The translations under genes were made by a program, and so were the position numbers. This document shows, piece after piece, positions 1 through 9,400 of a stretch of 30,747 nucleotides of DNA. The stretch is taken from the IMG/VR virus record IMGVR_UViG_3300042464_000625, positions 1-30,747 of that record; one strand, written 5' to 3'. Position 1 is the first letter of the stretch. Every line of letters begins with the position of its first letter. Origin of the DNA: a virus (lineage: Duplodnaviria; Caudoviricetes). Below the pieces are notes generated by a model. It searched no databases. It had not been told where the DNA came from and saw only the letters and a program-made list of their open reading frames with translations.

Positions 1-162
1 GAAGGCCTCAGATGCGGTCAAACGGCGCTCGACCCACACGATTTTGACCAGCAGGAGACGGCATGGCTCCAGTTCCGGGTATTCAACAAGGGTGTATCCC
101 ACCCCGTGGCTAAACAGGGTGTCGAACACGGAACCGATGCACAAGGGTTTAGTGGTTGCCAT
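1..162 (-). CDS. Hypothetical protein, partial (runs off window start)
   Basis: ATG at 162 overlaps the end of the upstream gene. Frame is open to position 1: MATTKPLCIGSVFDTLFSHGVGYTLVEYPELEPCRLLLVKIVWVERRLTASEAF. Confidence 0.45.
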   Translation of the reverse strand, partial: MATTKPLCIGSVFDTLFSHGVGYTLVEYPELEPCRLLLVKIVWVERRLTASEAF

Positions 163-490
163 TTGGCGTTGTTGTTTGGGTAAGGAAAATCTGCCGCTCG
201 GGATACGGCAGGTGCGGGTGCGGCCTGGTGTCTACCAGCCGGAACGGGCTGTTTCTGGTTTTGCCGGGGCCCAGGTTGACGGCCCGACCCGACAGCAGAA
301 ATACGGATCGCTGGACGGCATGTAACCCCATGCCTGATGCGGCCATCAGCTCCCGGTAGGTGTCCCGACCAGCTGCGACCCAAAGCAGCACCTCGACGTC
401 TCGAGACTTCAGGTTGTGCCCTGCCGCCTTGGCTACCTCTCTCATGGCCCTGAACCTGGCGGCCAGGGCGGCGCATTCAGCGGCGTCCAT
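149..490 (-). CDS. Winged helix-turn-helix (MarR-like) DNA-binding protein
   Basis: 113 aa. LKSRDVEVLLWVAAGRDTYRELMAASGMGLHAVQRSVFLL fits a wHTH, followed by a wing with LV...PHP....RQIFLT. MarR-like regulators occur in early regions of cyanopodoviruses. Confidence 0.6.
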   Translation of the reverse strand: MDAAECAALAARFRAMREVAKAAGHNLKSRDVEVLLWVAAGRDTYRELMAASGMGLHAVQRSVFLLSGRAVNLGPGKTRNSPFRLVDTRPHPHLPYPERQIFLTQTTTPNGNH

Positions 491-665
491 GGCGCTGCGC
501 CTCCTCGTAGAGGAATGCCCCCACGTAATCGCGCACGCGGGGCTTGCCCTTGGCCCTGGGGTATCGGGTCGGCCGGGCCGGTGGCTTCGGGTGCAACCTG
601 CCGGCCAGGGCGCAGGGCCCCAGCAGCAGGGTCAGCAGCAGCAGGGCCGTGGCGGTTGCGTTCAT
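477..665 (-). CDS. Small membrane-anchored or exported hypothetical protein
   Basis: 62 aa with hydrophobic N-terminus (ALLLLTLLLGPCALA) and basic tail. Tightly packed between neighbouring genes. Confidence 0.55.
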   Translation of the reverse strand: MNATATALLLLTLLLGPCALAGRLHPKPPARPTRYPRAKGKPRVRDYVGAFLYEEAQRHGRR

Positions 666-666
666 G

Positions 667-882
667 TCAATCCTTGATCATTTCCATGCAGCAGCCCAAA
701 GAACCCATCTTGTTTTGTTCTTGGCTGAAGGTAATAGTCCTTGAGCGTTTCCCGTTTTCTGATATGTAGTCGTATCCCATCCAGTTGCCTCCACTGACAT
801 CTTTGTCAGATGCACGGGTTCGCCTCCATCCATCTGCCAGGGCTTCAGCGACGGTGGCGTAATGAGTGCGTTCGTTGTCCAT
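667..882 (-). CDS. Hypothetical early protein (71 aa, MDNERTHY...)
   Basis: Start placed at ATG 882, 9 nt downstream of the repeated leader core. The longer 948 start runs through the leader hairpins. Confidence 0.65.
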   Translation of the reverse strand: MDNERTHYATVAEALADGWRRTRASDKDVSGGNWMGYDYISENGKRSRTITFSQEQNKMGSLGCCMEMIKD

Positions 883-891
883 GGTGTCGTT

Positions 892-949
892 TGTCGGGTG
901 AGTAGCAGCAGAGCGCTGCAGGGTGGCCGAGGGTTGCCCCAGGGCCACC
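892..949 (-). repeat. Repeated gene-leader element, copy 1 (hairpin A - hairpin B - TCACCCGACA)
   Basis: Core 892-901; hairpin B GCAGC-5nt-GCTGC 905-919; hairpin A GGTGGCC...GGCCACC 922-949. Confidence 0.85.
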
Positions 950-958
950 GGGCAGGGT

Positions 959-1438
959 TCAGGCGGCTAGTTGTTGGGGTCCGCGGGCTTTACTTCTGAA
1001 CTCCTGGACGCCGTATTTTGCGGCCAGTTCGTCCAGGCTGCCAGGATTGGCACGGGATCGGCCCAGATCCGCTGGCTTCCAGTACCAGCAGCCACGGCCT
1101 GAATGCCACCTGCAACCCTTGGCCTTTAGCAGTTCCTTCTGGGGCTTGGTGTTACCGCGAATCCAGATCCAGAGGCCTATTAAGTCGATCGTCAAACCTG
1201 GCAAGGTGAGTAGTTCGCTTATCTTATCCATGATCTGTTGCTCCCGTTCTGAGTTATAGGTATATTTTCTGCCGTCGCATTCTTGACCGTTGTTACCTTT
1301 CAAGGCTTTGTGGTATTGGGCATTAATGGCCTTCATTGTTTCCAGGCATCCACCTAAATCTGGGTGATGCTGCCGAGCGAGTTCCCGGTAACGGGATTTA
1401 ATCTCGATCACGTCTACGAGCCCGTAGAAATAATTCAT
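959..1438 (-). CDS. J-domain (DnaJ-like) protein
   Basis: 159 aa from ATG 1438. IKSRYRELARQHHPDLGG...MKAINAQY is a J-domain with HPD motif, followed by a Trp-rich domain (WIWIRGNT..KELLKAKGCRW...CWYW). Confidence 0.85.
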   Translation of the reverse strand: MNYFYGLVDVIEIKSRYRELARQHHPDLGGCLETMKAINAQYHKALKGNNGQECDGRKYTYNSEREQQIMDKISELLTLPGLTIDLIGLWIWIRGNTKPQKELLKAKGCRWHSGRGCWYWKPADLGRSRANPGSLDELAAKYGVQEFRSKARGPQQLAA

Positions 1439-1449
1439 TGTCGTCAGGG

Positions 1450-1498
1450 TGTCGGGTGAATAGCTGCCAGAGGGCAGCAGAGGGCCCGGTGTGGGCCC
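1450..1498 (-). repeat. Repeated gene-leader element, copy 2
   Basis: Core 1450-1459; hairpin B GCTGCC-4nt-GGCAGC 1463-1478; hairpin A GGGCCC-5nt-GGGCCC 1482-1498. Confidence 0.9.
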
Positions 1499-1508
1499 AG
1501 TGCTGGCT

Positions 1509-1820
1509 TCAGGTGGTAGCCGTGGGCTGGCCCAGTGGCTCCAGGCGATCAACCACAACCGCCAGATTCTCCGATTGCTTCAAGTTGGCAAAGGTGCCGA
1601 TGATGCCAATTAGGTGGCCTTGCTTTACGTGATCAGCGGCAATCTGCGCTTGTTTACCCCATAGTTCAAGGTCAAACAACCTAGGGCCCGTAAACTCAGG
1701 GCCCCATTTGATGCCCATAGTCAATGTTGCGCGAATAGCGCCGGACTCGTAGTAGGTGACAGCGGGGTCAGCGGTGGCGCGGCCAACAAGAGTGACCGAT
1801 TGGAGTGATTTAGCAGGCAT
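1509..1820 (-). CDS. ssb: Single-stranded DNA-binding protein, bacterial (cyanobacterial-like) OB fold, no acidic tail
   Basis: 103 aa. SVTLVGRATADPAVTYYESG...FDLELWGKQAQIAADHVKQGHLIGIIG...VDRLEPLG closely follows picocyanobacterial SSB as I recall it. Confidence 0.9.
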   Translation of the reverse strand: MPAKSLQSVTLVGRATADPAVTYYESGAIRATLTMGIKWGPEFTGPRLFDLELWGKQAQIAADHVKQGHLIGIIGTFANLKQSENLAVVVDRLEPLGQPTATT

Positions 1821-1831
1821 TGCCGTCAATG

Positions 1832-1890
1832 TGTCGGGTGATTGGCTGCTGAGGGCAGCAGGGGCCCAAGGGTGGGCCCGTGATGCCGTC
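1832..1890 (-). repeat. Repeated gene-leader element, copy 3
   Basis: Core 1832-1841; hairpin B 1845-1859; hairpin A 1862-1879. 1833-1890 matches 2671-2728 at 54/58 nt. Confidence 0.95.
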
Positions 1891-2272
1891 AGACCCAGGT
1901 TTCTTCGCTGAACCGATATGGGCGAACAGAAGGGCCCCATAGCTCAACCCACCTAATCAGCGCTTCATTCCTGCCGGTGTCCCTGTTGCGCACCACCAGC
2001 GCTAGGCCTACCTCGTTCATAGCGACAAGGTGCATAACGGCCGCCATTGCTGCGCTATGCCTGTTGGTGGAGCTGGCGATCATTTGGACCGGGCCAAATA
2101 GCGCCTGGCGCCAGGTGCTCACCGGCTGGCCAGAGATCCAGAACACGCCATAGGAGGCGTTTAGCCCGTTGATTGGCCCCGCGTAGTCAATCGGCTCTGC
2201 ATCGTCTGCGGCGGTGACGCCATGGGCCAGGCTGGTTACCTCGTGGGCGGGAACGGCGATAAGTCGGTTCAC
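1889..2272 (-). CDS. Hypothetical early protein (127 aa)
   Basis: GTG at 2272 lies 11 nt downstream of leader core copy 4 and overlaps the upstream stop (GTGA). Confidence 0.6.
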   Translation of the reverse strand: MNRLIAVPAHEVTSLAHGVTAADDAEPIDYAGPINGLNASYGVFWISGQPVSTWRQALFGPVQMIASSTNRHSAAMAAVMHLVAMNEVGLALVVRNRDTGRNEALIRWVELWGPSVRPYRFSEETWV

Positions 2273-2460
2273 GGTTGGTTGGGTGTCGGGTGAGTATTGA
2301 ACAAGGGGCCAAGCACGCTCCCATCGAGCGCTAGGTACCCCTGGGCAGGCTTGGCGTCGATCGTTTGCGGGCCCCACTCCTGCGAGGGGCCAGGGAGGCC
2401 AGGGAGTGGATCCATCCGGTATCTGGCGGGCTTGGGTGCCCGTGGGATGCGGCCTGTCAT
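2269..2460 (-). CDS. Small Pro-rich hypothetical protein (63 aa)
   Basis: ATG 2460 starts 4 nt after the stop of 2465..2659 and ends in a GTGA overlap with the next gene, exactly filling the gap. Confidence 0.45.
   Translation of the reverse strand: MTGRIPRAPKPARYRMDPLPGLPGPSQEWGPQTIDAKPAQGYLALDGSVLGPLFNTHPTPNQP
2284..2293 (-). repeat. Repeated gene-leader core, copy 4 (core only)
   Basis: Exact TCACCCGACA. Twin hairpin absent; a different stem CGCTC-5nt-GAGCG lies at 2316-2330. Confidence 0.8.
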
Positions 2461-2464
2461 GGCC

Positions 2465-2659
2465 TCAGGCCTGCCCATCGGGGCTGCCGTCTGCTGCGGT
2501 AACGGCAAATTGGTGATCCGGGTAGGTTTTGGCCAGAGCAGCGGCGCGGGTGAGCAACTGCGAGCGGTTGGCGTCTGTGTGTTGGTGGTGCCAGCGCCGC
2601 CAGCCGTCAGATGGGCAGCCGCTTAGTTCAGGGGAGCGGCACCAGAGAGACCAGAGCAT
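2465..2659 (-). CDS. Hypothetical early protein (64 aa)
   Basis: ATG 10 nt downstream of leader core copy 5. Confidence 0.6.
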   Translation of the reverse strand: MLWSLWCRSPELSGCPSDGWRRWHHQHTDANRSQLLTRAAALAKTYPDHQFAVTAADGSPDGQA

Positions 2660-2669
2660 GGTGTTGTCC

Positions 2670-2728
2670 TGTCGGGTGAATAGCTGCTGAGGGCAGCAGG
2701 GGCCCGAAGGTGGGCCCGTGATGCCGTC
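2670..2728 (-). repeat. Repeated gene-leader element, copy 5
   Basis: Core 2670-2679; hairpin B 2683-2697; hairpin A 2700-2717. Confidence 0.95.
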
Positions 2729-2739
2729 TGGTGGTGGTG

Positions 2740-3093
2740 TCAGGCGACCCGTTGGCGACGGCTACGGCGTGCCACTGGCGCAGGTGCTGCTACGGCGTAA
2801 TTCAGGCCAAGATCGCGCGCGATCGCTTCGATCTCATCGGCAGCGGCCACCAGGTCCGCATCTGCAGCATCTGCAGCAGCACGCAGATCAGCGATCGCTA
2901 CCAGTGCCATTGATTCCATTGATTCCATTGATTCATCGGATGCCGTGGCCTTGCGTGGCAGCAGCCCATCCAGGCGAACCAGCACCAAGGCCAGCACCAC
3001 CATCCACGCCAGCCCTTTGGCCAGGGTGAATAGGGCAACCCACCCCAGCAAGAGCGCACGCTGGCCGGGTGTCGTTGTTGTCGTTGTTGTCAT
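2740..3093 (-). CDS. Membrane protein, first gene of the early cluster (117 aa)
   Basis: ATG 3093 is 7 nt downstream of leader core copy 6. Poly-Thr N-terminus, long hydrophobic stretch, Ala/Asp-rich helix and basic tail. Confidence 0.6.
   Translation of the reverse strand: MTTTTTTTPGQRALLLGWVALFTLAKGLAWMVVLALVLVRLDGLLPRKATASDESMESMESMALVAIADLRAAADAADADLVAAADEIEAIARDLGLNYAVAAPAPVARRSRRQRVA
2907..2933. repeat. In-frame 9-bp tandem repeat (CCATTGATT)x3
   Basis: Three exact copies encoding ESM-ESM-ESM in the minus-strand ORF. Confidence 0.9.
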
Positions 3094-3100
3094 CGGTCGG

Positions 3101-3134
3101 TGTCGGGTGAACACTGCAGCAGTGGAGTGCAGTG
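3101..3134 (-). repeat. Repeated gene-leader element, copy 6 (single hairpin + core)
   Basis: Core 3101-3110; adjacent stem CACTGCA-9nt-TGCAGTG 3112-3134. Confidence 0.8.
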
Positions 3135-3181
3135 CAGCCACTATGGCCTCCTGCTGTAGGGAAGCATGGAGATGGGATGGA

Positions 3182-3199
3182 TTCGTAACAATTCGTAAC
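3182..3199 (-). promoter_or_regulatory. HLR1-like (RpaB-type) direct repeat
   Basis: GTTACGAA-TT-GTTACGAA versus HLR1 consensus (G/T)TTACA(T/A)(T/A)-N2-repeat: 7/8 match in each half with correct spacing. Confidence 0.5.
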
Positions 3200-3207
3200 A
3201 ATAGGAA

Positions 3208-3227
3208 GGGAATGAGAACCATTATCA
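3208..3227. promoter_or_regulatory. Fur-box-like site
   Basis: GGGAATGAGAACCATTATC matches GATAATGATAATCATTATC at 15/19; the 7-1-7 core TGAGAAC-C-ATTATCA matches 12/14. Confidence 0.55.
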
Positions 3228-3954
3228 AGCCATTGGCCATAGCCGTAGCGCCGGCAGGCAGGCTCCCCAAGGCTGCAGCGGATGTTAAATCTACTGACAG
3301 CCCAGGCCACGACTGGCAGCAGGCAGGCAGGTCTGCCGCAGACGGCACCATCGGCTCCCAGGGCAATCAGCAGGGGGGCATGGGGGGCGCCAGCGGGTGC
3401 GTTTTGCGGTGCAACCCATCACAAAATGCGACCCAAAAATTCAGGGCCCTCATGGCGCCAAGGGATGCAGGGGTGTTGAGCAGGTTCGGTCTGGGCTCTA
3501 GGGCAAATGGTTGTCTCCCCTTCTGCGAAATGGATTCGAAGGGCTGATGAGCAGGGAACCCGGTGGGTGGTGGGTAGACGGTGCCCTGAGACCGGTTGGG
3601 AGGCGCAGCCGAGCACACCGGCGGTAGCCTCCCAACGCAGCAATGGCAACTCCCCAGCCCCTGACGATGGGCCTGCTGCCGACCGGAGGCCATGGCGATG
3701 ACCGGGGGTGTGGGGCAGGCCAAGCGGCTGGGGCTGGGGAGGAACGGATCGGGCTTGCGCCCGTCTTGTTTCTGGGTTCCTATACAAGAGATAAGAGTGG
3801 CGGCAAAACGGCCCAGTGGTTGCAATGGATGTGCTCCACCGTTGTACTGTATGACCTATAAAACGGGTAAGCAAACCCCTTCCCCCCACTGGGTCGCAAC
3901 CAGCAGGGGGAATTGAACGGGGCCCGCCGACCACCTTCCAGGACGGATCGACCT

Positions 3955-4326
3955 ATGCAGGCTACAGAGGGGACAGAGGACTTCCGCATGGTCCACAAGG
4001 AGGGACTGGAGAAGCTGGTTGAGGCCCTGGCTGCCAGGCGCCTGCGGCCTCGGGATATTGCGGTGTTCATGGCGGTCATGCCTCACGTCAACCTGCGGAC
4101 CGGTAAAGCGCACGTCGGGCCAGCTCGCCTGGCCCAGGACATGGGGGAGCATGCCTCCAATGTTTCGACCTCGCTGCGCAAGCTCCAGGTCGAGCTATGC
4201 CTGGTGCGATGCCGGGACAGGGACAACGGCGGCTACTGCCTGCTGCTCAACCCCTACATCTGCTCAATCGGCGGCCCCCAGAAGCGGGGATTCTTGTGGC
4301 AGCAGTTTCAAGAAGCGCTGGAGTAG
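3955..4326 (+). CDS. Winged HTH protein, RepL-like
   Basis: 123 aa. LRPRDIAVFMAVM...GPARLAQDMGEHASNVSTSLRKL...GGYCLLLNPY is an HTH plus wing ending in LNP. Confidence 0.65.
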   Translation: MQATEGTEDFRMVHKEGLEKLVEALAARRLRPRDIAVFMAVMPHVNLRTGKAHVGPARLAQDMGEHASNVSTSLRKLQVELCLVRCRDRDNGGYCLLLNPYICSIGGPQKRGFLWQQFQEALE

Positions 4327-4347
4327 GTAGGCTCAGGGAGTAATGCG

Positions 4348-4361
4348 CTCCAGGGTTGCAG
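4348..4361. promoter_or_regulatory. Palindromic start-associated motif (CTCCA-GGGT-TGCAG)
   Basis: Matches three other copies at start codons; last base is the G of GTG 4361. Confidence 0.4.
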
Positions 4362-4792
4362 TGGCTAGCTACGAGTCGATCAGTGTTGAGGAATTGGGCA
4401 GGCTGGGCCTGTCGAGCACTTTTGTCGAGGAGGGGGAGCTGACTGCCGCCAGGGCGCGGTATCAAGCCAAGGTCGGGGCCGATATGGCATCAATGGACGC
4501 CCAGGCCAAAGCCAACCACGAAACCCCCGCAAAGGCCTCTTTTGCGGTTAGCGAGGAAGAGTTTGCTGCCTTTATGGCGTGGAAGGCCAAGGCCAGCCAC
4601 GAAGGCGCGGTCGCCGCTGCTGTGTCTGACGCAGTGCTGTTTAACGAGCTGGACCCCCTGCTGAAGGCAGTCAGGGGCGACGAGGCCCCCCAGCCCACTC
4701 AGGATGCCCAGGAGCAGGCCCCGGAGGCTGAGGAGGCATCAGTGGACCCTGAGCCCGTTGCAGAGGCCAAGCAGGGGCGGGGGAGGCGGTGA
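4361..4792 (+). CDS. Hypothetical acidic, Ala-rich protein (alternative start ATG 4343)
   Basis: Open frame with protein-like composition; GTGA overlap with the next gene. Confidence 0.7.
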   Translation: MASYESISVEELGRLGLSSTFVEEGELTAARARYQAKVGADMASMDAQAKANHETPAKASFAVSEEEFAAFMAWKAKASHEGAVAAAVSDAVLFNELDPLLKAVRGDEAPQPTQDAQEQAPEAEEASVDPEPVAEAKQGRGRR

Positions 4793-5034
4793 GCTACGAC
4801 GAGCGCTACGAGGAGGCCGGCGCCCGGTTCTGGGGGGCGGCCAAGGCCCTGCTCAGCCTGAAAAGCATCGACCTGCTCAATGTCGCCACCGACGCCATGA
4901 AGCAGCAGGCCAAGGAGTTTGCCGAAGGCATCAATGGCCCCCACGTTGGCTGCATGTGCGAGCGCTGCATTGAACTGCGGGAGCAGATCGCAGCCCAGTC
5001 TGCCGATGCGCCTGACCCAACGGATGCCTGGTAA
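4789..5034 (+). CDS. Hypothetical protein (81 aa) with H-x-x-C-x-C-x-x-C cluster
   Basis: Translationally coupled to the upstream gene; HVGCMCERC may bind metal. Confidence 0.65.
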   Translation: MSYDERYEEAGARFWGAAKALLSLKSIDLLNVATDAMKQQAKEFAEGINGPHVGCMCERCIELREQIAAQSADAPDPTDAW

Positions 5035-5054
5035 GGTGGCAGAGTCAATCATCT

Positions 5055-5064
5055 TGTCGGGTGA
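5055..5064 (-). repeat. Repeated leader core, copy 7 (antisense to terL)
   Basis: Exact TGTCGGGTGA on the + strand in the gap upstream of terL. Confidence 0.75.
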
Positions 5065-5071
5065 AAGGCAG

Positions 5072-5107
5072 GCAAAGCCCCACGGCCCTGAAAGCCGGGG
5101 GTTTTGC
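5072..5107. terminator. Strong hairpin (terminator or attenuator-like) ending 1 nt before the probable terL start
   Basis: GCAAAGCCCC-A-CGGC-7nt-GCCG-GGGGTTTTGC: 14 bp stem with one bulge and one G-U pair. Confidence 0.6.
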
Positions 5108-5108
5108 T

Positions 5109-6935
5109 GTGTCTGAGCGCTACCCGAACTCCATCCTTCCAGAAGAGCTGGAATCATTCCCGTACTTCCTTGCTTGGGGGATGCGGGAAACCGGGCTGAT
5201 CGGCCCGGAGGAAGAGCCCACCAGGATGCAGCTGCTGATCGCTGACTGGCTGAATCACGAAGCAGGCGGGGCCTCCATCACGGCCGCCTTTCGAGAGGCG
5301 TCAAAGTCTTACATCGCTGGCTGGGCCGCGCTGCACCGGCTAAGCCTGGATCCGTTCAACGAGAAGGTGTTGCTGACCGGTGCCACGGCCAAGAAGCCGA
5401 CTGAGGTCAGCAGTTGGATGCAGAAGACCGTTGCGGCGGTAGATCTTTTCGAGCCTTTGCGGCCACGGCGTGATCAGCTGTCTTCGGTGATTGCGTGGGA
5501 CGTGGGGCCCAGCTCGATCGACCAGGCCCCAAGCGTGCGGGTCTCGGGGATCCTTTCCCCTGGCCTAACCGGCTCCCGTGCCACCTTCATCCTGCCGGAT
5601 GACGTGGAGAACGAAAGCAACAGCATCACGCTGCTCAAGCAGCAACGGCTGGCGTCAATCTTCAACGAGCTGGTGGCCATCTTGAAGGTGCCGGCCCCGG
5701 GTCAGATGAAGCGCTCCATCCGGGTGCTGGGCACCCCGCACATCGAGACCAGTTTGTACCTGGAGCTATCGCGCAACCGCGGCTATGGGATCCGCTATTT
5801 CCCGGCCCGATACCCAGACCCCAACGACGAGAACAGCTGGGGTTGTTACGACGGCAACCTATGTCCGCAGCTAGCGGAAGAGGTCCAACAGCACCCATGG
5901 CTGATTGGGATGCCGACCGACCCGGAGCGGTTCCCAGAGGTAGTGCTGCTTGAAAAGGAGCTGAGGGGCACCAGAGCATGGGTGCAGCTTCAGTACCAGC
6001 TCAACTGCCGACTGAGCACCGCCGAGAAGTACCCCTGCCGCCTGGGCGACCTGCTGGTGTTGAGCCTGGACGGCAAGGCGCTGCCGGAGCTGCTGGCATG
6101 GAGCGGCAGCCCGGAGCAGCGCATCAATCCGTTCGGCGTCAAGAGCGAGCTGCAGTGCGTGGGCATGGGCTCCGATCGCTTCTATCACCGCCCGGTGATG
6201 CAGGGCGGCTGGCTGCCACGGTCGGAGGTGTGGCGAACGGCAATGGCGATCGACCCATCGGCCCGGGGCCGCGACGAAATGGCGTGGGTGGTGCTGGCGG
6301 AGCTGAACGGCAACGTGTTTGCGCTGGACTGGGGAGGCACGCAGGCCGGCTTTGAGGATGCGACCCTGACGGCCCTTTGCGAAAAGGCCAAGCAGTGGGG
6401 TGTCCAGGTGGTGCTGCCAGAGCCCAACTACGGCGGCGGCATGTTCAACCAGATCCTGCTGCCCCACATGCAGCGGATCTACCCAAACTGCTCAATCCTG
6501 GGGCCTGACGAGGTGCCATGGAGCACGGCGCAGAAGGAAGTTCGCATCGTGAACACCGTGGCCCCCTTGGTGCAGCAGCACCGGCTGGTGGTCAACGAGG
6601 CCCGAATCCAGTCGGAATGGGAGGAGGCCGAGCGGGATCCTGAAACCGGGCACCAGCGGACGCTGATGTTCCAGCTCAGCAGGGTTACAACCGACCGCAA
6701 CTGCCTGCAATGGATCGACCGGCTCGATGCCCTGGCGATCGGTTGCGCCTGGTTTGAGGAATCAGCGGCCCAGGATCAAGCGAAGGTGACGGAGCAGCGC
6801 AACGCGGAGAAGCTCCAGGCCGTTATGGACGCAATCCACGACGAATCAGGGCGTGGTATCGAGGCCCTGGCCCTGGGGCTGCCACTCAACGGCTACTACG
6901 GCGGCCGAGCTGTCGGCGGCCTCAAGCGCCGCTAA
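5109..6935 (+). CDS. terL: Terminase large subunit (T7 gp19-like)
   Basis: Walker A region AFREASKS, LTGSRA, Walker B ILPDDVE, coupling motif LGTP, FPARYP, nuclease IDPSARGRDE and DRLDALA. Start GTG 5109 is preferred over 5061. Confidence 0.95.
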   Translation: MSERYPNSILPEELESFPYFLAWGMRETGLIGPEEEPTRMQLLIADWLNHEAGGASITAAFREASKSYIAGWAALHRLSLDPFNEKVLLTGATAKKPTEVSSWMQKTVAAVDLFEPLRPRRDQLSSVIAWDVGPSSIDQAPSVRVSGILSPGLTGSRATFILPDDVENESNSITLLKQQRLASIFNELVAILKVPAPGQMKRSIRVLGTPHIETSLYLELSRNRGYGIRYFPARYPDPNDENSWGCYDGNLCPQLAEEVQQHPWLIGMPTDPERFPEVVLLEKELRGTRAWVQLQYQLNCRLSTAEKYPCRLGDLLVLSLDGKALPELLAWSGSPEQRINPFGVKSELQCVGMGSDRFYHRPVMQGGWLPRSEVWRTAMAIDPSARGRDEMAWVVLAELNGNVFALDWGGTQAGFEDATLTALCEKAKQWGVQVVLPEPNYGGGMFNQILLPHMQRIYPNCSILGPDEVPWSTAQKEVRIVNTVAPLVQQHRLVVNEARIQSEWEEAERDPETGHQRTLMFQLSRVTTDRNCLQWIDRLDALAIGCAWFEESAAQDQAKVTEQRNAEKLQAVMDAIHDESGRGIEALALGLPLNGYYGGRAVGGLKRR

Positions 6936-7211
6936 GTGCGGGGATACCTTCAGCCTGGCCTCTAGGTGGCCTTTGGGGATCCGGCTGCCGGCAAGGGCCT
7001 TGGCCAGGGCCCCCAGGGGGTCTTCCGGCGTGGCTGCCACTGAGATCCTGTTCTGCTTGAGCAGCTGCAACGCTGTCCTGAGGTCGTCATTGGACGCCGG
7101 AATGATTGTGCCCTCAGGGCCAGGCCTTCCGTTCTGCACCACGTCGAGAATCTCGTCCGCGACCGCCTCGTGCAGCTCTTCTAGCTTCTTCTTAAGGCTT
7201 TCCTGGTCCAT
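6846..7211 (-). CDS. terS: Terminase small subunit (T7 gp18-like)
   Basis: 121 aa from ATG 7211. LEELHEAVADEILDVVQNG...DLRTALQLLKQNRI...PLGALA pattern, and position after tail fibre and holin. Confidence 0.7.
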   Translation of the reverse strand: MDQESLKKKLEELHEAVADEILDVVQNGRPGPEGTIIPASNDDLRTALQLLKQNRISVAATPEDPLGALAKALAGSRIPKGHLEARLKVSPHLAALEAADSSAAVVAVEWQPQGQGLDTTP

Positions 7212-7213
7212 TT

Positions 7214-7432
7214 TCAGCCAGCGGGGGTGCTTGGGGGCGGATCGCTGGGGGGCGGGGCCTGGTCCTCCCGTTTGCGGGCCTGCCATTGCTTCCCTAGCCA
7301 GTCCAGGGGTGATTTCACCAGGATGCCGGCGGCAAAATTCCACCGTGGCTCGCAAAATTCCCACGGCTTGGGGGCTCGCAGCTCACACGCGGCAAGGTAG
7401 GAGGCAAGAAAAGCGCTGACCACCCACATCAT
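7214..7432 (-). CDS. Small membrane or lipoprotein-like protein, possibly lysis-related (72 aa)
   Basis: ATGA overlap with the upstream gene; hydrophobic N-terminus ending LAAC; Pro-rich tail. Confidence 0.5.
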   Translation of the reverse strand: MMWVVSAFLASYLAACELRAPKPWEFCEPRWNFAAGILVKSPLDWLGKQWQARKREDQAPPPSDPPPSTPAG

Positions 7433-7632
7433 TTCGTGTGGGCCTCCACAATCCTGATCCGGTCTTCGTGATCGTTGATTTTTTCGTGATGGTGGGCCAG
7501 CAAGGCGTCGATTCGGCCCTGAGACTTGCCCAGATGGTTGCCGATCGACCACAGCGCCTTAACCGCTGAGCCGCCAAGGGTCAATACTGCAGCGACGGTG
7601 GCGAGGACGCCGGCTACTTCAACGACTCCCAC
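7429..7632 (-). CDS. Putative holin-like membrane protein (67 aa)
   Basis: N-terminal TM helix plus coiled-coil tail (INDHEDRIRIVE); holin position downstream of the tail fibre. Confidence 0.55.
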   Translation of the reverse strand: MGVVEVAGVLATVAAVLTLGGSAVKALWSIGNHLGKSQGRIDALLAHHHEKINDHEDRIRIVEAHTK

Positions 7633-7646
7633 TACAGGGCTGCAGA
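7632..7646. promoter_or_regulatory. Palindromic start-associated motif (minus strand TCTGCA-GCCC-TGTAG)
   Basis: Overlaps the GTG start by 1 nt; -10-like TAATAT at 7657-7662. Confidence 0.45.
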
Positions 7647-7699
7647 GTTCTGGTGAATATTAGCGTGTTATGAGTGATTGCCCGCTGGTTATACGATCA

Positions 7700-9400
7700 T
7701 CAAGAGGTCGGGAGCGGCCCGGTCGGGACAACGTGAGGCAGGGCGACACCAAGAAGAACCTGGAAGTCGTTCATATTTCCGATCCAAAGCCTGCCTGTAG
7801 TGTCATAAGTCCCGATCGCAAGCAGTGTTTGCAATATACTGTCGGTGTAAGGATTACTGACGCCATGCGAAAGATTACCGTTTACCGTAGTTCTTGCTAC
7901 CCCACTTGCTCTAGTGTGTTGTATAAATGCCCATTCATCATTAGCGGGCACGTTTTGCGTTCCATCTTGAAAGAATCTATTATGGCCAGACACCACCACT
8001 TTGTTAGTAGACATGGCGCCCCATAGCGTAAAAGAATCGCGGGGTAAAAATAGATTACTAGAGTTAACGCTATCGTAAAAATAAAACAAGCCTCTATTAG
8101 AAGAGTAGCTTGGCTTTATAGCCCAAAACCGTATTGTGTAGTCTCCTTCTCCTATGACATCCGCCAGCGCAGCAGACATCCATGCTCCCGCAGCGCCGCT
8201 GAAAGATGCGCTGCCCGCGCCCCAGCGTCCTACCGTTGTACTAATTGACACGTTTCCAGGCGTTACTGAGAGAGATCTACCACTTACATCAGTAAAGCCC
8301 GTGGCGCTGGTCAGCGGCAGATGCAGGATGACCGACCTATATCCAGGGTCTTTCCCTACAAGCCTAGGAGGCGTTGTTGTAGCGTTAAGATTTACCCGGA
8401 TGGATAGGCTATAGTATTTCATTATCGCCCTTTCGGCGACATTCTTAGGCCTAGCTTCTTGGCCGGCACCAATAACCAAATTCGAGCCTGTGCCCTCTGG
8501 ATTCAAAGCAACATCCCCAGACCCCGCCGCTGGTGTGTCCCGTCTGTAAGGAATCACAATTTCCTTGTTTTGATCTGCCTGATAGCTGCCCTTTACCCGG
8601 TTTGGATCCAGCCCTCTGCCATTGTCTAGGCCCCGCAGGACTACTCCTCGCAGGTCTGGGCCGGCCACAAACGTTGTCGATCCATCGCCTGCTCCGTAGG
8701 ACGTGCCGTGCTTCAGGAATAATTCAGCGAACGCAACCCGGCTCACAGTTGCGCCAATGGCAGGGCCCCAGCCTAGTGGGTCTGTAGGTGAAGTTGTATA
8801 AGCAATGTCTCCAACCTCGCCAGCGCCACTAGCGATTAGCCTTACGTCGGCAAGGCTGGTATTAACACCAGCTAGCTGGGCTGTAACCACAGCATTCGCC
8901 GCAGTCACTTGCGCCAGCAATGCAGCGTTTGCCGCGTTTACCTGTGCCAGCAATGCAGCATTCTGCTGCTCTACCTGTTGGTTTACGACGACAGCCTGCC
9001 CTTCTAGCTGCTGGCTTGTGCTTAGCGATATTGATACCGATACATTGGCCTTGTCTAGGTTCTCCTGGACCGCATACAACTTCTGTTTGTCTGCTATCAG
9101 TAGATCATTCGCATCAACATTTGACCCGTCAGTCCAGCCCACCAGTGGCGCGGCAATCGGCGTTCCACGGATCACGGTCAGGGTTTTACCTGTCGTGACG
9201 GCAACCATGCTGATCTGGCCGTCGTTGATCCAGTTGTAATCAGTGCCGCTGATATAAAGCTGGTCAAAGGTGCCTTCGGACAAGCTCAGGTTGGCGAATA
9301 CCTGGACGTGGGATCTTGAGATAAAGGGGAACGGGACGGGCACCGATAAGCCCGCAACGCCTCCCTGCAGGGTGCGGTAGCTGTAAGGGGTAGAGGTCAT
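7700..9400 (-). CDS. Tail fibre: T7 gp17-type N-terminal anchor, coiled coil, tail-collar domain, C-terminal LamG-like domain
   Basis: VPFPFISRSHVQV...IRGTP (gp17-N); VSRVAFAELF..HGTSYGAGDGSTTF..PDLRG..LRGLDNGRGLD (collar); LHLPL...FTDVSG...GAGSASFSG...DYTIRFW (LamG). Confidence 0.9.
   Translation of the reverse strand: MTSTPYSYRTLQGGVAGLSVPVPFPFISRSHVQVFANLSLSEGTFDQLYISGTDYNWINDGQISMVAVTTGKTLTVIRGTPIAAPLVGWTDGSNVDANDLLIADKQKLYAVQENLDKANVSVSISLSTSQQLEGQAVVVNQQVEQQNAALLAQVNAANAALLAQVTAANAVVTAQLAGVNTSLADVRLIASGAGEVGDIAYTTSPTDPLGWGPAIGATVSRVAFAELFLKHGTSYGAGDGSTTFVAGPDLRGVVLRGLDNGRGLDPNRVKGSYQADQNKEIVIPYRRDTPAAGSGDVALNPEGTGSNLVIGAGQEARPKNVAERAIMKYYSLSIRVNLNATTTPPRLVGKDPGYRSVILHLPLTSATGFTDVSGRSLSVTPGNVSISTTVGRWGAGSASFSGAAGAWMSAALADVIGEGDYTIRFWAIKPSYSSNRGLFYFYDSVNSSNLFLPRDSFTLWGAMSTNKVVVSGHNRFFQDGTQNVPANDEWAFIQHTRASGVARTTVNGNLSHGVSNPYTDSILQTLLAIGTYDTTGRLWIGNMNDFQVLLGVALPHVVPTGPLPTS

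Follow-up and report, generated by a model that had tools for sequence, protein, structure and literature searches.

Early genes behind a repeated leader

The window analysed here is the whole stretch of 30,747 nucleotides (nt) that makes up IMG/VR record IMGVR_UViG_3300042464_000625 (G000), and it carries a set of early genes on the minus strand whose start codons are preceded by an exact ten-base word, hereafter the core, and at four of six places also by a structured RNA element, hereafter the junction, that lies between the stop codon of one gene and the core of the next. The proteins of the window include a T7-type terminase, a small terminase, tail fibre, tail tube, major capsid, scaffold and head-tail proteins, and judged by them the window is an S-SRP02-like T7-type cyanophage, the closest cultured phage being Synechococcus phage S-SRP02 with 51% identity in the large terminase subunit (terL). 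Window and S-SRP02 share a layout in which the terL block stands opposite to the early genes and is followed by MarR, integrase and RNA polymerase genes; integrase and polymerase, which are present in the close relatives G001-G005, fall past the end of the window. A picocyanobacterial host from freshwater is likely, because the three genome contigs found with a related integrase are mostly labelled Synechococcaceae (two, with one labelled Rhodobacteraceae). A terL search of genome contigs found no relative, a nucleotide search of cultured phages returned a single 37-nt match (in two records of the same coliphage), and one pattern scan for relatives gained some, most of its matches being unrelated.

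Six exact minus-strand copies of the core had been listed in an earlier note on this DNA, 9, 11, 11, 11, 10 and 7 nt before a start codon, and both positions (Table 1) and distances were verified. The note had also seen no copy in the structural region, which is correct beyond position 5065 but overlooks one exact copy just short of it: TCACCCGACA occurs seven times in the window, the seventh time in the opposite sense, 45 nt before the terminase gene. With one mismatch allowed, these 7 matches stood against 1.81 expected and none of 100 shuffles reached 7, for a motif that was chosen after it had been seen and that relatives keep nonetheless. Five relatives searched over their whole length had 7-12 core copies each, nearly all on one strand and with 0 matches to a reversed control pattern, and some of these copies lay ahead of integrase, single-strand binding protein (SSB) and some middle genes. 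Across 57 distinct copies, conservation was confined to the ten bases and ended with a sharp edge. The distance from the core to the first start codon ranged from -1 to 26 nt in the 56 copies that have one and was 7-11 nt in 29 of them, the starts having been picked automatically, so that individual choices may err. The word is no generic host repeat: 30 host-side genomes, all relatives of a Synechococcaceae genome, showed no enrichment (113 matches against 153 for the control), and of the 17 matches in G006, 11 came from a pair of phage-like contigs and another two from small contigs.

A two-state RNA junction between early genes

On the coding strand, the junction runs in the order stop codon, segment X, C×C mismatch, inner stem, segment X', CUC and segment X''. 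Segment X' has two possible partners, namely the upstream X, with which it forms a hairpin of 17-21 base pairs (bp), or the downstream X''. The earlier note had described a fixed layout of upstream stop, hairpins A and B, a 3-nt gap, core and start in four copies. The twin hairpins and the gap of 3 nt were seen again in copies 1, 2, 3 and 5, as was the stem flip in copy 1, but the gap and the core-to-start spacing vary among relatives, the stop lies ~10 nt further upstream in copy 5 than in copies 1, 2 and 3, and the core of copy 4 sits within the 3' end of a conserved 63-codon gene. Hairpins A and B turned out to be one of two folds, the other lengthening hairpin A through X:X', with X directly following the upstream stop. 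The claim that the stems are too short for RNase III accordingly had to be given up, since the same bases make a conserved 17-21-bp hairpin with the sequence after the upstream stop, and with this long fold RNase III-type processing becomes plausible rather than unlikely. The helix contains two C×C mismatches and has about 10 bp below the loop and 6-10 bp above it, where a T7-type site would have about two helical turns with 11 bp or more on one side of the cut.

A layout scan that made no use of the core gave 79 coding-strand matches, 30 of which were followed by an A/C-rich tail, compared with 0 of 50 on the opposite strand. One of the 30 was dropped as spurious, which left 29 elements in 18 genomes, so that 18 is the minimum number of related phages with the junction. 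In 28 of the 29 automatic elements, the C×C mismatch had a U after it, and 28 automatic elements together with others added by pattern made up a set of 34 distinct ones. In this set, outer stem pairing was 0.87 versus 0.67 in shuffled sequences, X':X'' formed 6.06 of 7 pairs versus 5.20, and G·U pairs outnumbered A·C pairs by 22 to 5, which favours the coding strand. In an alignment of 31 rows, 92.1% of cells were paired, a value reached in 0 of 500 shuffles, compared with 72.8% after shuffling and 38-50% for slid partners, while changes on both sides were seen in 9 of 16 pairs, a count reached by 28 of 500 shuffles. The basal G-C and A-U pairs were invariant (31/31); they are built on the GA of the stop codon and are kept even where there is no stop. 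The in-frame stop of the upstream open reading frame (ORF) formed the stem base in 25 of the 31 elements, 28 of 34 had a stop codon 8 nt upstream of the 5' C, and the energies of the two folds differed by 0-10 kcal/mol. The fold thus covaries and favours the coding strand, as would be expected of an element acting as RNA.

A covariance model gave high-scoring matches in the window at junctions 1, 2, 3 and 5 only, and it matched untrained loci, including L105, L110 and L116, as well as marine phages at 45-47% terL identity; no element was found in 20 more distant T7-like loci (terL 34-39%). A separate run over five whole genomes missed a known positive in G006 and gives no information. The absence from Rfam that the earlier note had named as support was borne out, in that Rfam 15 yielded 7 weak matches in 1-6000, all far under the gathering threshold and none on a junction. 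Among the papers listed in literature searches, with subscription papers outside their scope, no description of the junction was seen. Four supplementary files of a viral candidate RNA catalogue (PMC10690425) contained no match, although the catalogue as a whole may include it, and a term search of the main text of the S-SRP02 paper (PMC8790148) found 'promoter', 'motif' and 'intergenic' all absent. The junction is a real, uncatalogued RNA family of S-SRP02-like phages. The first early leader of several loci (L077:3641, L078:8010, L084:2829, L098 and L099) has a simple CUGCA/UGCAG hairpin and not the two-state junction, and the four-base loop of this hairpin is mostly GNRA-like.

Table 1. Positions of leaders, genes and other features in the window
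Feature	Position	Strand	Remark
Core copy 1 (UCACCCGACA)	892..901	-	9 nt before ORF 667-882
Core copy 2	1450..1459	-	exact match
Core copy 3	1832..1841	-	exact match
Core copy 4	2284..2293	-	inside 3' end of ORF 2269-2460; without two-state junction
Core copy 5	2670..2679	-	homology to relatives stops at final base
Core copy 6	3101..3110	-	behind simple hairpin
Seventh core copy	5055..5064	+	G/U-rich complement of all six leaders on terL-sense RNA
Two-state junction 1	905..960	-	C950×C921; stop codon at base
Two-state junction 2	1463..1510	-	C1500×C1480
Two-state junction 3	1845..1890	-	C1880×C1861
Two-state junction 5	2683..2728	-	C2718×C2699
Long hairpin over terL ribosome-binding region and start	5066..5114	+	folds better on terL-sense strand
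Terminase large subunit, T7 type	5109..6935	+	opposite to rest of genome; 51% to S-SRP02
Cassette gene, weak DnaJ-like start (phrog_15863)	959..1438	-	L076 has ArdC antirestriction gene instead
Cassette gene, single-strand binding protein family	1509..1820	-	missing at same slot in G005
Cassette gene, function unknown	1889..2272	-	missing in L076, where SSB directly follows core 4
Conserved 63-codon gene	2269..2460	-	82-92% in three close relatives; L098 58% over 33 amino acids
Variable-slot gene	2465..2659	-	different genes after same core in L076, G005 and lake RNA
First early gene	2740..3093	-	no Pfam or PHROG family
Conserved palindrome and direct repeat, upstream of early operon	3182..3226	-	candidate host-regulator boxes

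The core and its reversed copy before terL

S-SRP02 was found to have the same junction with a different core, CCCAACAACCACC, and other groups have GACCAACCAC, CACACCACCA or ACCA repeats. All five core types are A/C-rich, with an opening cost of 0-3.9 kcal/mol, and tandem expansions occur. The core was predicted to be unpaired with a probability of 0.62-0.79, compared with a background of 0.42, and, in agreement with the earlier note, it does not pair with the 16S tail, taken as the final 13 nt of four 16S rRNAs that come from relatives of a Synechococcaceae genome; pairing elsewhere in 16S rRNA was tried as well and was no better than in shuffles. Shine-Dalgarno (SD) energies of the six window genes lay between +0.1 and -4.0 kcal/mol. 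In these predictions the core fits an unstructured landing pad for ribosomes. ACA motifs are described as enhancing translation without strict position (PMC3879156, in the part available). The core is not a fixed host signal, because each lineage has its own, and the invariance of the word seen in the window thus holds within a lineage while its wording differs between lineages. Of 56 lineage copies, 21 had threonine as residue two, the window showed no A/C-rich codons at the N-terminus that might serve as a further enhancer, and the sense-oriented copy goes with a gene on the other strand in two phages, G004 and S38-C3. At L098:6950-7048, compared with window positions 2269-2460, each lineage's own core is written into the coding sequence at the 3' end of the homologous gene. 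In L167, a distant T7-like phage (terL 36%, 45% GC), A/C-only tandem leaders stand before early genes and integrase (4000-8200, minus strand) with no match to the junction model, and from this locus the landing pad may have arisen before the hairpin.

The seventh copy, which reads on the same strand as the other six, lies between ORF 4789-5034 and terL and is opposite to both. An early core was present in 20 of 27 loci examined, and in 18 of these 20 the same word occurred reversed within 400 nt upstream of terL, with near variants in the other 2 and a foreign word in none. Marine S38-C3, which has the fifth core type, likewise has a reversed copy of its own word, placed ahead of a long hairpin within the terL block. 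A quick tree of terL requires 5 changes for the five core types, and core and reversed copy would have changed together independently about four or five times. On this comparison of loci, the reversed copy co-evolves with the core. In an unbiased 10-mer test, the stretch of 130 nt preceding terL scored higher than each of 39 control windows in 5 of 17 genomes; the failures were genomes with little upstream sequence, with an inserted gene or from a distant phage.

In 24 of 24 cases, the terL-sense strand gave the better fold of the hairpin adjoining the reversed copy, with 2-5 G·U pairs, and in 13 sequences the region upstream of terL contained three covarying hairpins in which 12 of 31 pairs change on both sides. 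The predicted duplexes of the reversed copy with the early leaders of the window ranged from -19.0 to -29.5 kcal/mol, and those with own leaders generally from -21.6 to -36.8 kcal/mol, compared with -10.3 to -25.4 kcal/mol for other cores. The reversed copy was itself mostly paired in cis, with an opening cost of 3.7-14.7 kcal/mol and an unpaired probability of 0.25 in the window. Core variants that G·U pairing would tolerate were too few for a test of pairing, and most transitions in the word are tolerated anyway. A leftward gene behind copy 7 was considered and rejected, as neither a start codon nor an ORF is conserved there.

Several side observations concern the same region. At L094:9870-9995 (plus strand) and in 12 homologues, the hairpin before terL has an invariant G/U-rich six-base loop on a covarying stem, and the loop of this hairpin, which S-SRP02-like phages keep, is also complementary to their early leaders. 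An extra gene lies between the terL hairpin and terL at L077:5400-5650, in L231 and at L089:42992-43672, and the site of the hairpin is therefore also an insertion point. The reading frames of terS and terL converge and overlap at their 3' ends (6846-6935), so the late transcripts must overlap in antisense.

Gene exchange, lake RNA and the readings of the junction

The cassette genes between the leaders differ between relatives (Table 1), and their cargo includes ArdC antirestriction, SSB and sigma-factor-like genes. A sigma-70-like gene with regions 2 and 4 sits in the early cassette at L077:2055-2642 and L078:6586-7173 (minus strand). Homology blocks begin or stop -1 to +18 nt from the core, L292 and the window share little beyond the junctions, and in lake RNA contigs two different genes, with loose ends, follow core 5. 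The same leader before different genes, as anticipated in the earlier note, was consequently seen both among relatives and within the same lake, and I infer that homologous recombination takes place at the junctions. A resemblance of ORF 2465-2659 to an S-SRP02 gene that was seen by eye proved not significant.

Parts of the stretch were present in 24 lake metatranscriptomes, and eight runs were mapped using, among the matches listed, 32 of 61 pieces in a first set and all 26 in a second, with end and coverage counts taken from pieces within 640-3112. Among the pieces listed, the centres of junctions 1, 2 and 3 were covered in 0 of 8 runs and that of junction 5 in 2 of 8, both with a variant allele, while the region of copy 4, which has a core without junction, was covered in 7 of 8; the mean was 4.5 runs per position. 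In run X6 the variant allele, a single one that adjoins an indel, no longer has the basal G that is invariant elsewhere. Low ends of contigs fell at the 5' base of a junction in 9 of 42 cases compared with 0.8 expected, and high ends within 20 nt 5' of the core in 14 of 44 compared with 2.2 expected. Ends were located at 957/960 and 919/921 for junction 1, at 1885, 1887 and 1888 for junction 3, and at 2723-2728 and 2686 (three runs) for junction 5, and contigs from three runs came to an end at 3112, which is 2 nt short of core 6. Although of similar or greater stability, the hairpin at terL was bridged in 3 of 4 runs. Assembly-graph branching was judged an unlikely cause of the breaks, as it predicts overlapping contigs, yet the gaps were 35-45 nt. 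The stretch 3113-4250 had no cover in the first RNA set and was not used as evidence; 3359-3500 was covered by one run. The contig breaks are a weak hint of processing. Together with the covarying coding-strand fold, the predicted unpaired and SD-free core and the gene swaps, they lend substance to the view of the earlier note that the leader is a plug-in module acting at the RNA level.

On balance, and with modest confidence, I take the junction to be a cut-and-protect site combined with an SD-free landing pad, at the edge of which relatives have exchanged genes. The long fold would be nicked by a host double-strand RNase of the RNase III type, close to the C×C mismatch. The upstream mRNA would then end in the inner stem, which caps its 3' side, while on the downstream mRNA a new pairing of X' with X'' would provide a 5' cap. 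Hairpins at the 5' end stabilise mRNA. The unpaired, U-poor core would allow ribosome loading without an SD while offering few RNase E sites, and junctions recombining by homology would both reshuffle the genes and hold the core to one wording in each lineage. Internal loops are described as restricting RNase III to one cut that leaves a protective 3' hairpin (PMC1540722, in the part available), and cyanobacterial RNase E, according to passages of PMC10989914, has a preference for U at +2 and is induced when P-SSP7 infects.

A number of points weigh against this reading. The cut itself was not observed; the Logan contigs, at a depth of 2-12, carry neither strand nor true ends, the RNA test windows were set after the coverage had been viewed, a similar gap could arise if reverse transcription stopped at a stable hairpin, and the 5' ends are scattered from 1 to 20 nt before the core with no single register. 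The inner stem is often 6-7 bp, below the 11-bp minimum given for E. coli RNase III in passages of PMC1540722, and for 11 of 34 elements a fold other than the long hairpin is predicted to have the lowest energy. The controls for covariation take no account of shared descent, and the C×C anchor, in 28 of 29 automatic matches, arises partly by construction. A strong SD is missing from 5 of 9 late genes as well, and codons 2-7 are no richer in A/C than those of late genes (0.61 versus 0.64). Cutting and protection alone, moreover, explain neither the exact core nor the antisense copy that tracks it.

The other readings overlap with this one, and not all are mutually exclusive. An antisense master switch, in which the G/U-rich complement on terL-sense RNA pairs in trans with all early leaders, is compatible with cutting and protection and implies that early translation and terminase expression antagonise each other; I regard it as a tentative possibility. 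It draws on the lineage's own word being reversed near terL in 18 of 20 loci with no foreign word, on the 5 changes among five core types, on the uniform terL-sense folding (24/24) and the three covarying hairpins, on the missing conserved start codon or ORF past the reversed copy, on the stronger predicted duplexes with own leaders than with foreign cores, and on the presence of the stretch in lake RNA contigs, with a precedent in GcvB, which silences ACA translation enhancers (PMC3879156, in the part available). The reversed copy is, however, largely paired in cis and would need a toehold, the independent co-changes are only about four or five for cores that were defined after looking, and the contigs, which lack strand, bridge the region and show no separate small RNA. 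The distant phages L110, L116 and L167 have leaders without such a copy within 130 nt of terL, and a shared binding protein would predict the same co-variation. A protein-free timing circuit, in which processing releases the private A/C-rich enhancer and its complement on the terL transcript brings about mutual shut-off between early and terminase expression, is a speculative proposal; lock-and-key co-evolution of enhancer and antisense tract in at least five lineages would be part of this timing circuit and is suggested with the same reserve.

Translational coupling without cleavage appears unlikely: a terminating ribosome would melt X, flip the RNA to the twin-hairpin fold and pass expression on, for which the stop codon 8 nt before the 5' C (28/34), in frame in 25 of 31, and two folds within 0-10 kcal/mol are suitable, but core and start are unpaired in either fold, the basal pairs are kept in 31 of 31 elements even without a stop, which may merely reuse structural bases, and the RNA breaks are not predicted. 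It is rather doubtful that the core is bound by a phage protein particular to each lineage, whether on DNA in the manner of a stoperator or on RNA, with the terL copy as another site. The A/C-richness in five lineages, the variable tandems and the constant position just before a start point to single-stranded RNA, and stoperators follow the direction of transcription (PMC9283540, in the part available) while the terL copy is opposite to its genes; yet the core is asymmetric, exact and intergenic, its conservation ends sharply at 10 nt, co-variation of all sites fits a co-evolving protein, and the phage group has integrase, MarR-family and other winged-helix genes. That the core is a promoter of the phage single-subunit RNA polymerase, with its last A as start site, I consider very improbable. 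In its favour, a polymerase of this kind is encoded by the phages, the orientation of almost every copy is that of the main strand, and 4 of 57 copies have a core that overlaps AUG. Against it, the 25 kb of late genes contain no copy, S-SRP02 has none after integrase, most copies lie upstream of the polymerase gene, and the units are tandem and of low complexity without an AT-rich part. IS200/IS605 ends, primase sites, Chi, KOPS and integrase arm sites were considered and dropped, as they explain neither the link to start codons nor the RNA-strand bias.

The cut-and-protect junction resembles known systems in parts; the papers cited in this comparison are referred to for the portions available. 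Like the T7 early RNase III sites of the R1.1 type, it is a hairpin of some length that contains an internal loop and stands between early genes in the sense of the mRNA, and the single cut proposed here would likewise leave a protective 3' hairpin (PMC1540722); it differs in the second fold X':X'', the stop codon in the stem base, a shorter inner stem, the SD-free A/C-rich core and the gene exchange at the site. T4-type promoter-early stem-loop (PeSL) cassettes are also repeated intergenic stem-loops beside small variable genes that are gained, lost or replaced there, and homologous recombination was shown at them (PMC2839356). Each PeSL unit has a sigma-70 promoter, a terminator and an SD (PMC2839356), whereas 0 promoter-like sites were found in 1-5200, in a scan that cyanobacterial promoters may escape, and the junctions have no terminator-like site and no SD. 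The nearest layout is that of the start-associated sequences and extended start-associated sequences (SAS/ESAS) of Cluster K mycobacteriophages (PMC3203893), which share with the core its position just ahead of start codons and its rarity in host-side genomes, and three genomes of which also have one reversed site (PMC3203893). The SAS includes an SD core (PMC3203893), while the core described here cannot pair with the 16S tail, the part upstream of it is a covarying two-state RNA fold, and its reversed site co-varies across lineages.

GcvB and its ACA targets offer an A/C-rich, loosely positioned enhancer near the start together with a complementary RNA (PMC3879156). GcvB is, however, a host small RNA acting on SD-bearing mRNAs (PMC3879156), whereas the complement here would lie in the phage's own terL leader, the pairing is predicted, the seed is mostly paired in cis, and the contigs bridge the region with no discrete small RNA. 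Cluster A mycobacteriophage stoperators are many short, asymmetric, intergenic sites in temperate phages (PMC9283540). In contrast to these DNA sites, which occur genome-wide and are oriented with transcription (PMC9283540), the core is linked to starts, A/C-rich and absent from late genes, and copy 5055-5064 stands opposite to its flanking genes, where overlapping late read-through is possible. In archaeal viruses, a single regulatory signature also marks diverse early accessory genes, among them anti-defence genes (PMC11065993); that signature is a strong promoter, while the one described here is, on present evidence, post-transcriptional.

Post-transcriptional control of early genes is little understood in T7-like cyanophages, whose hosts often do without SD. 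The junction may serve as a searchable marker for early accessory genes of S-SRP02-like phages and as a compact expression part for Synechococcus, and the whole architecture is present in cultured S-SRP02, which makes direct testing possible. The co-evolving reversed copy is one unexplained, testable feature of the junction family, and it provides a concrete hypothesis for start-associated repeats in general, those of Cluster K having been unexplained since 2011.

Upstream of the early operon, one or both of the palindrome (3211-3226) and the direct repeat (3182-3199, both on the minus strand) are also found in L292, L077, L084, L088, L094, L098 and L100. Judged by consensus sequence, I take these boxes to resemble the host Fur and RpaB (HLR1) boxes, which, if true, would make the early promoter responsive to iron and light. 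CCTAGG pairs spaced ~11-14 nt apart lie upstream of MarR and SSB genes at L083:839-868 and 4962-4980 and in L094, L098, L100 and L088, and are candidates for an operator or a promoter.

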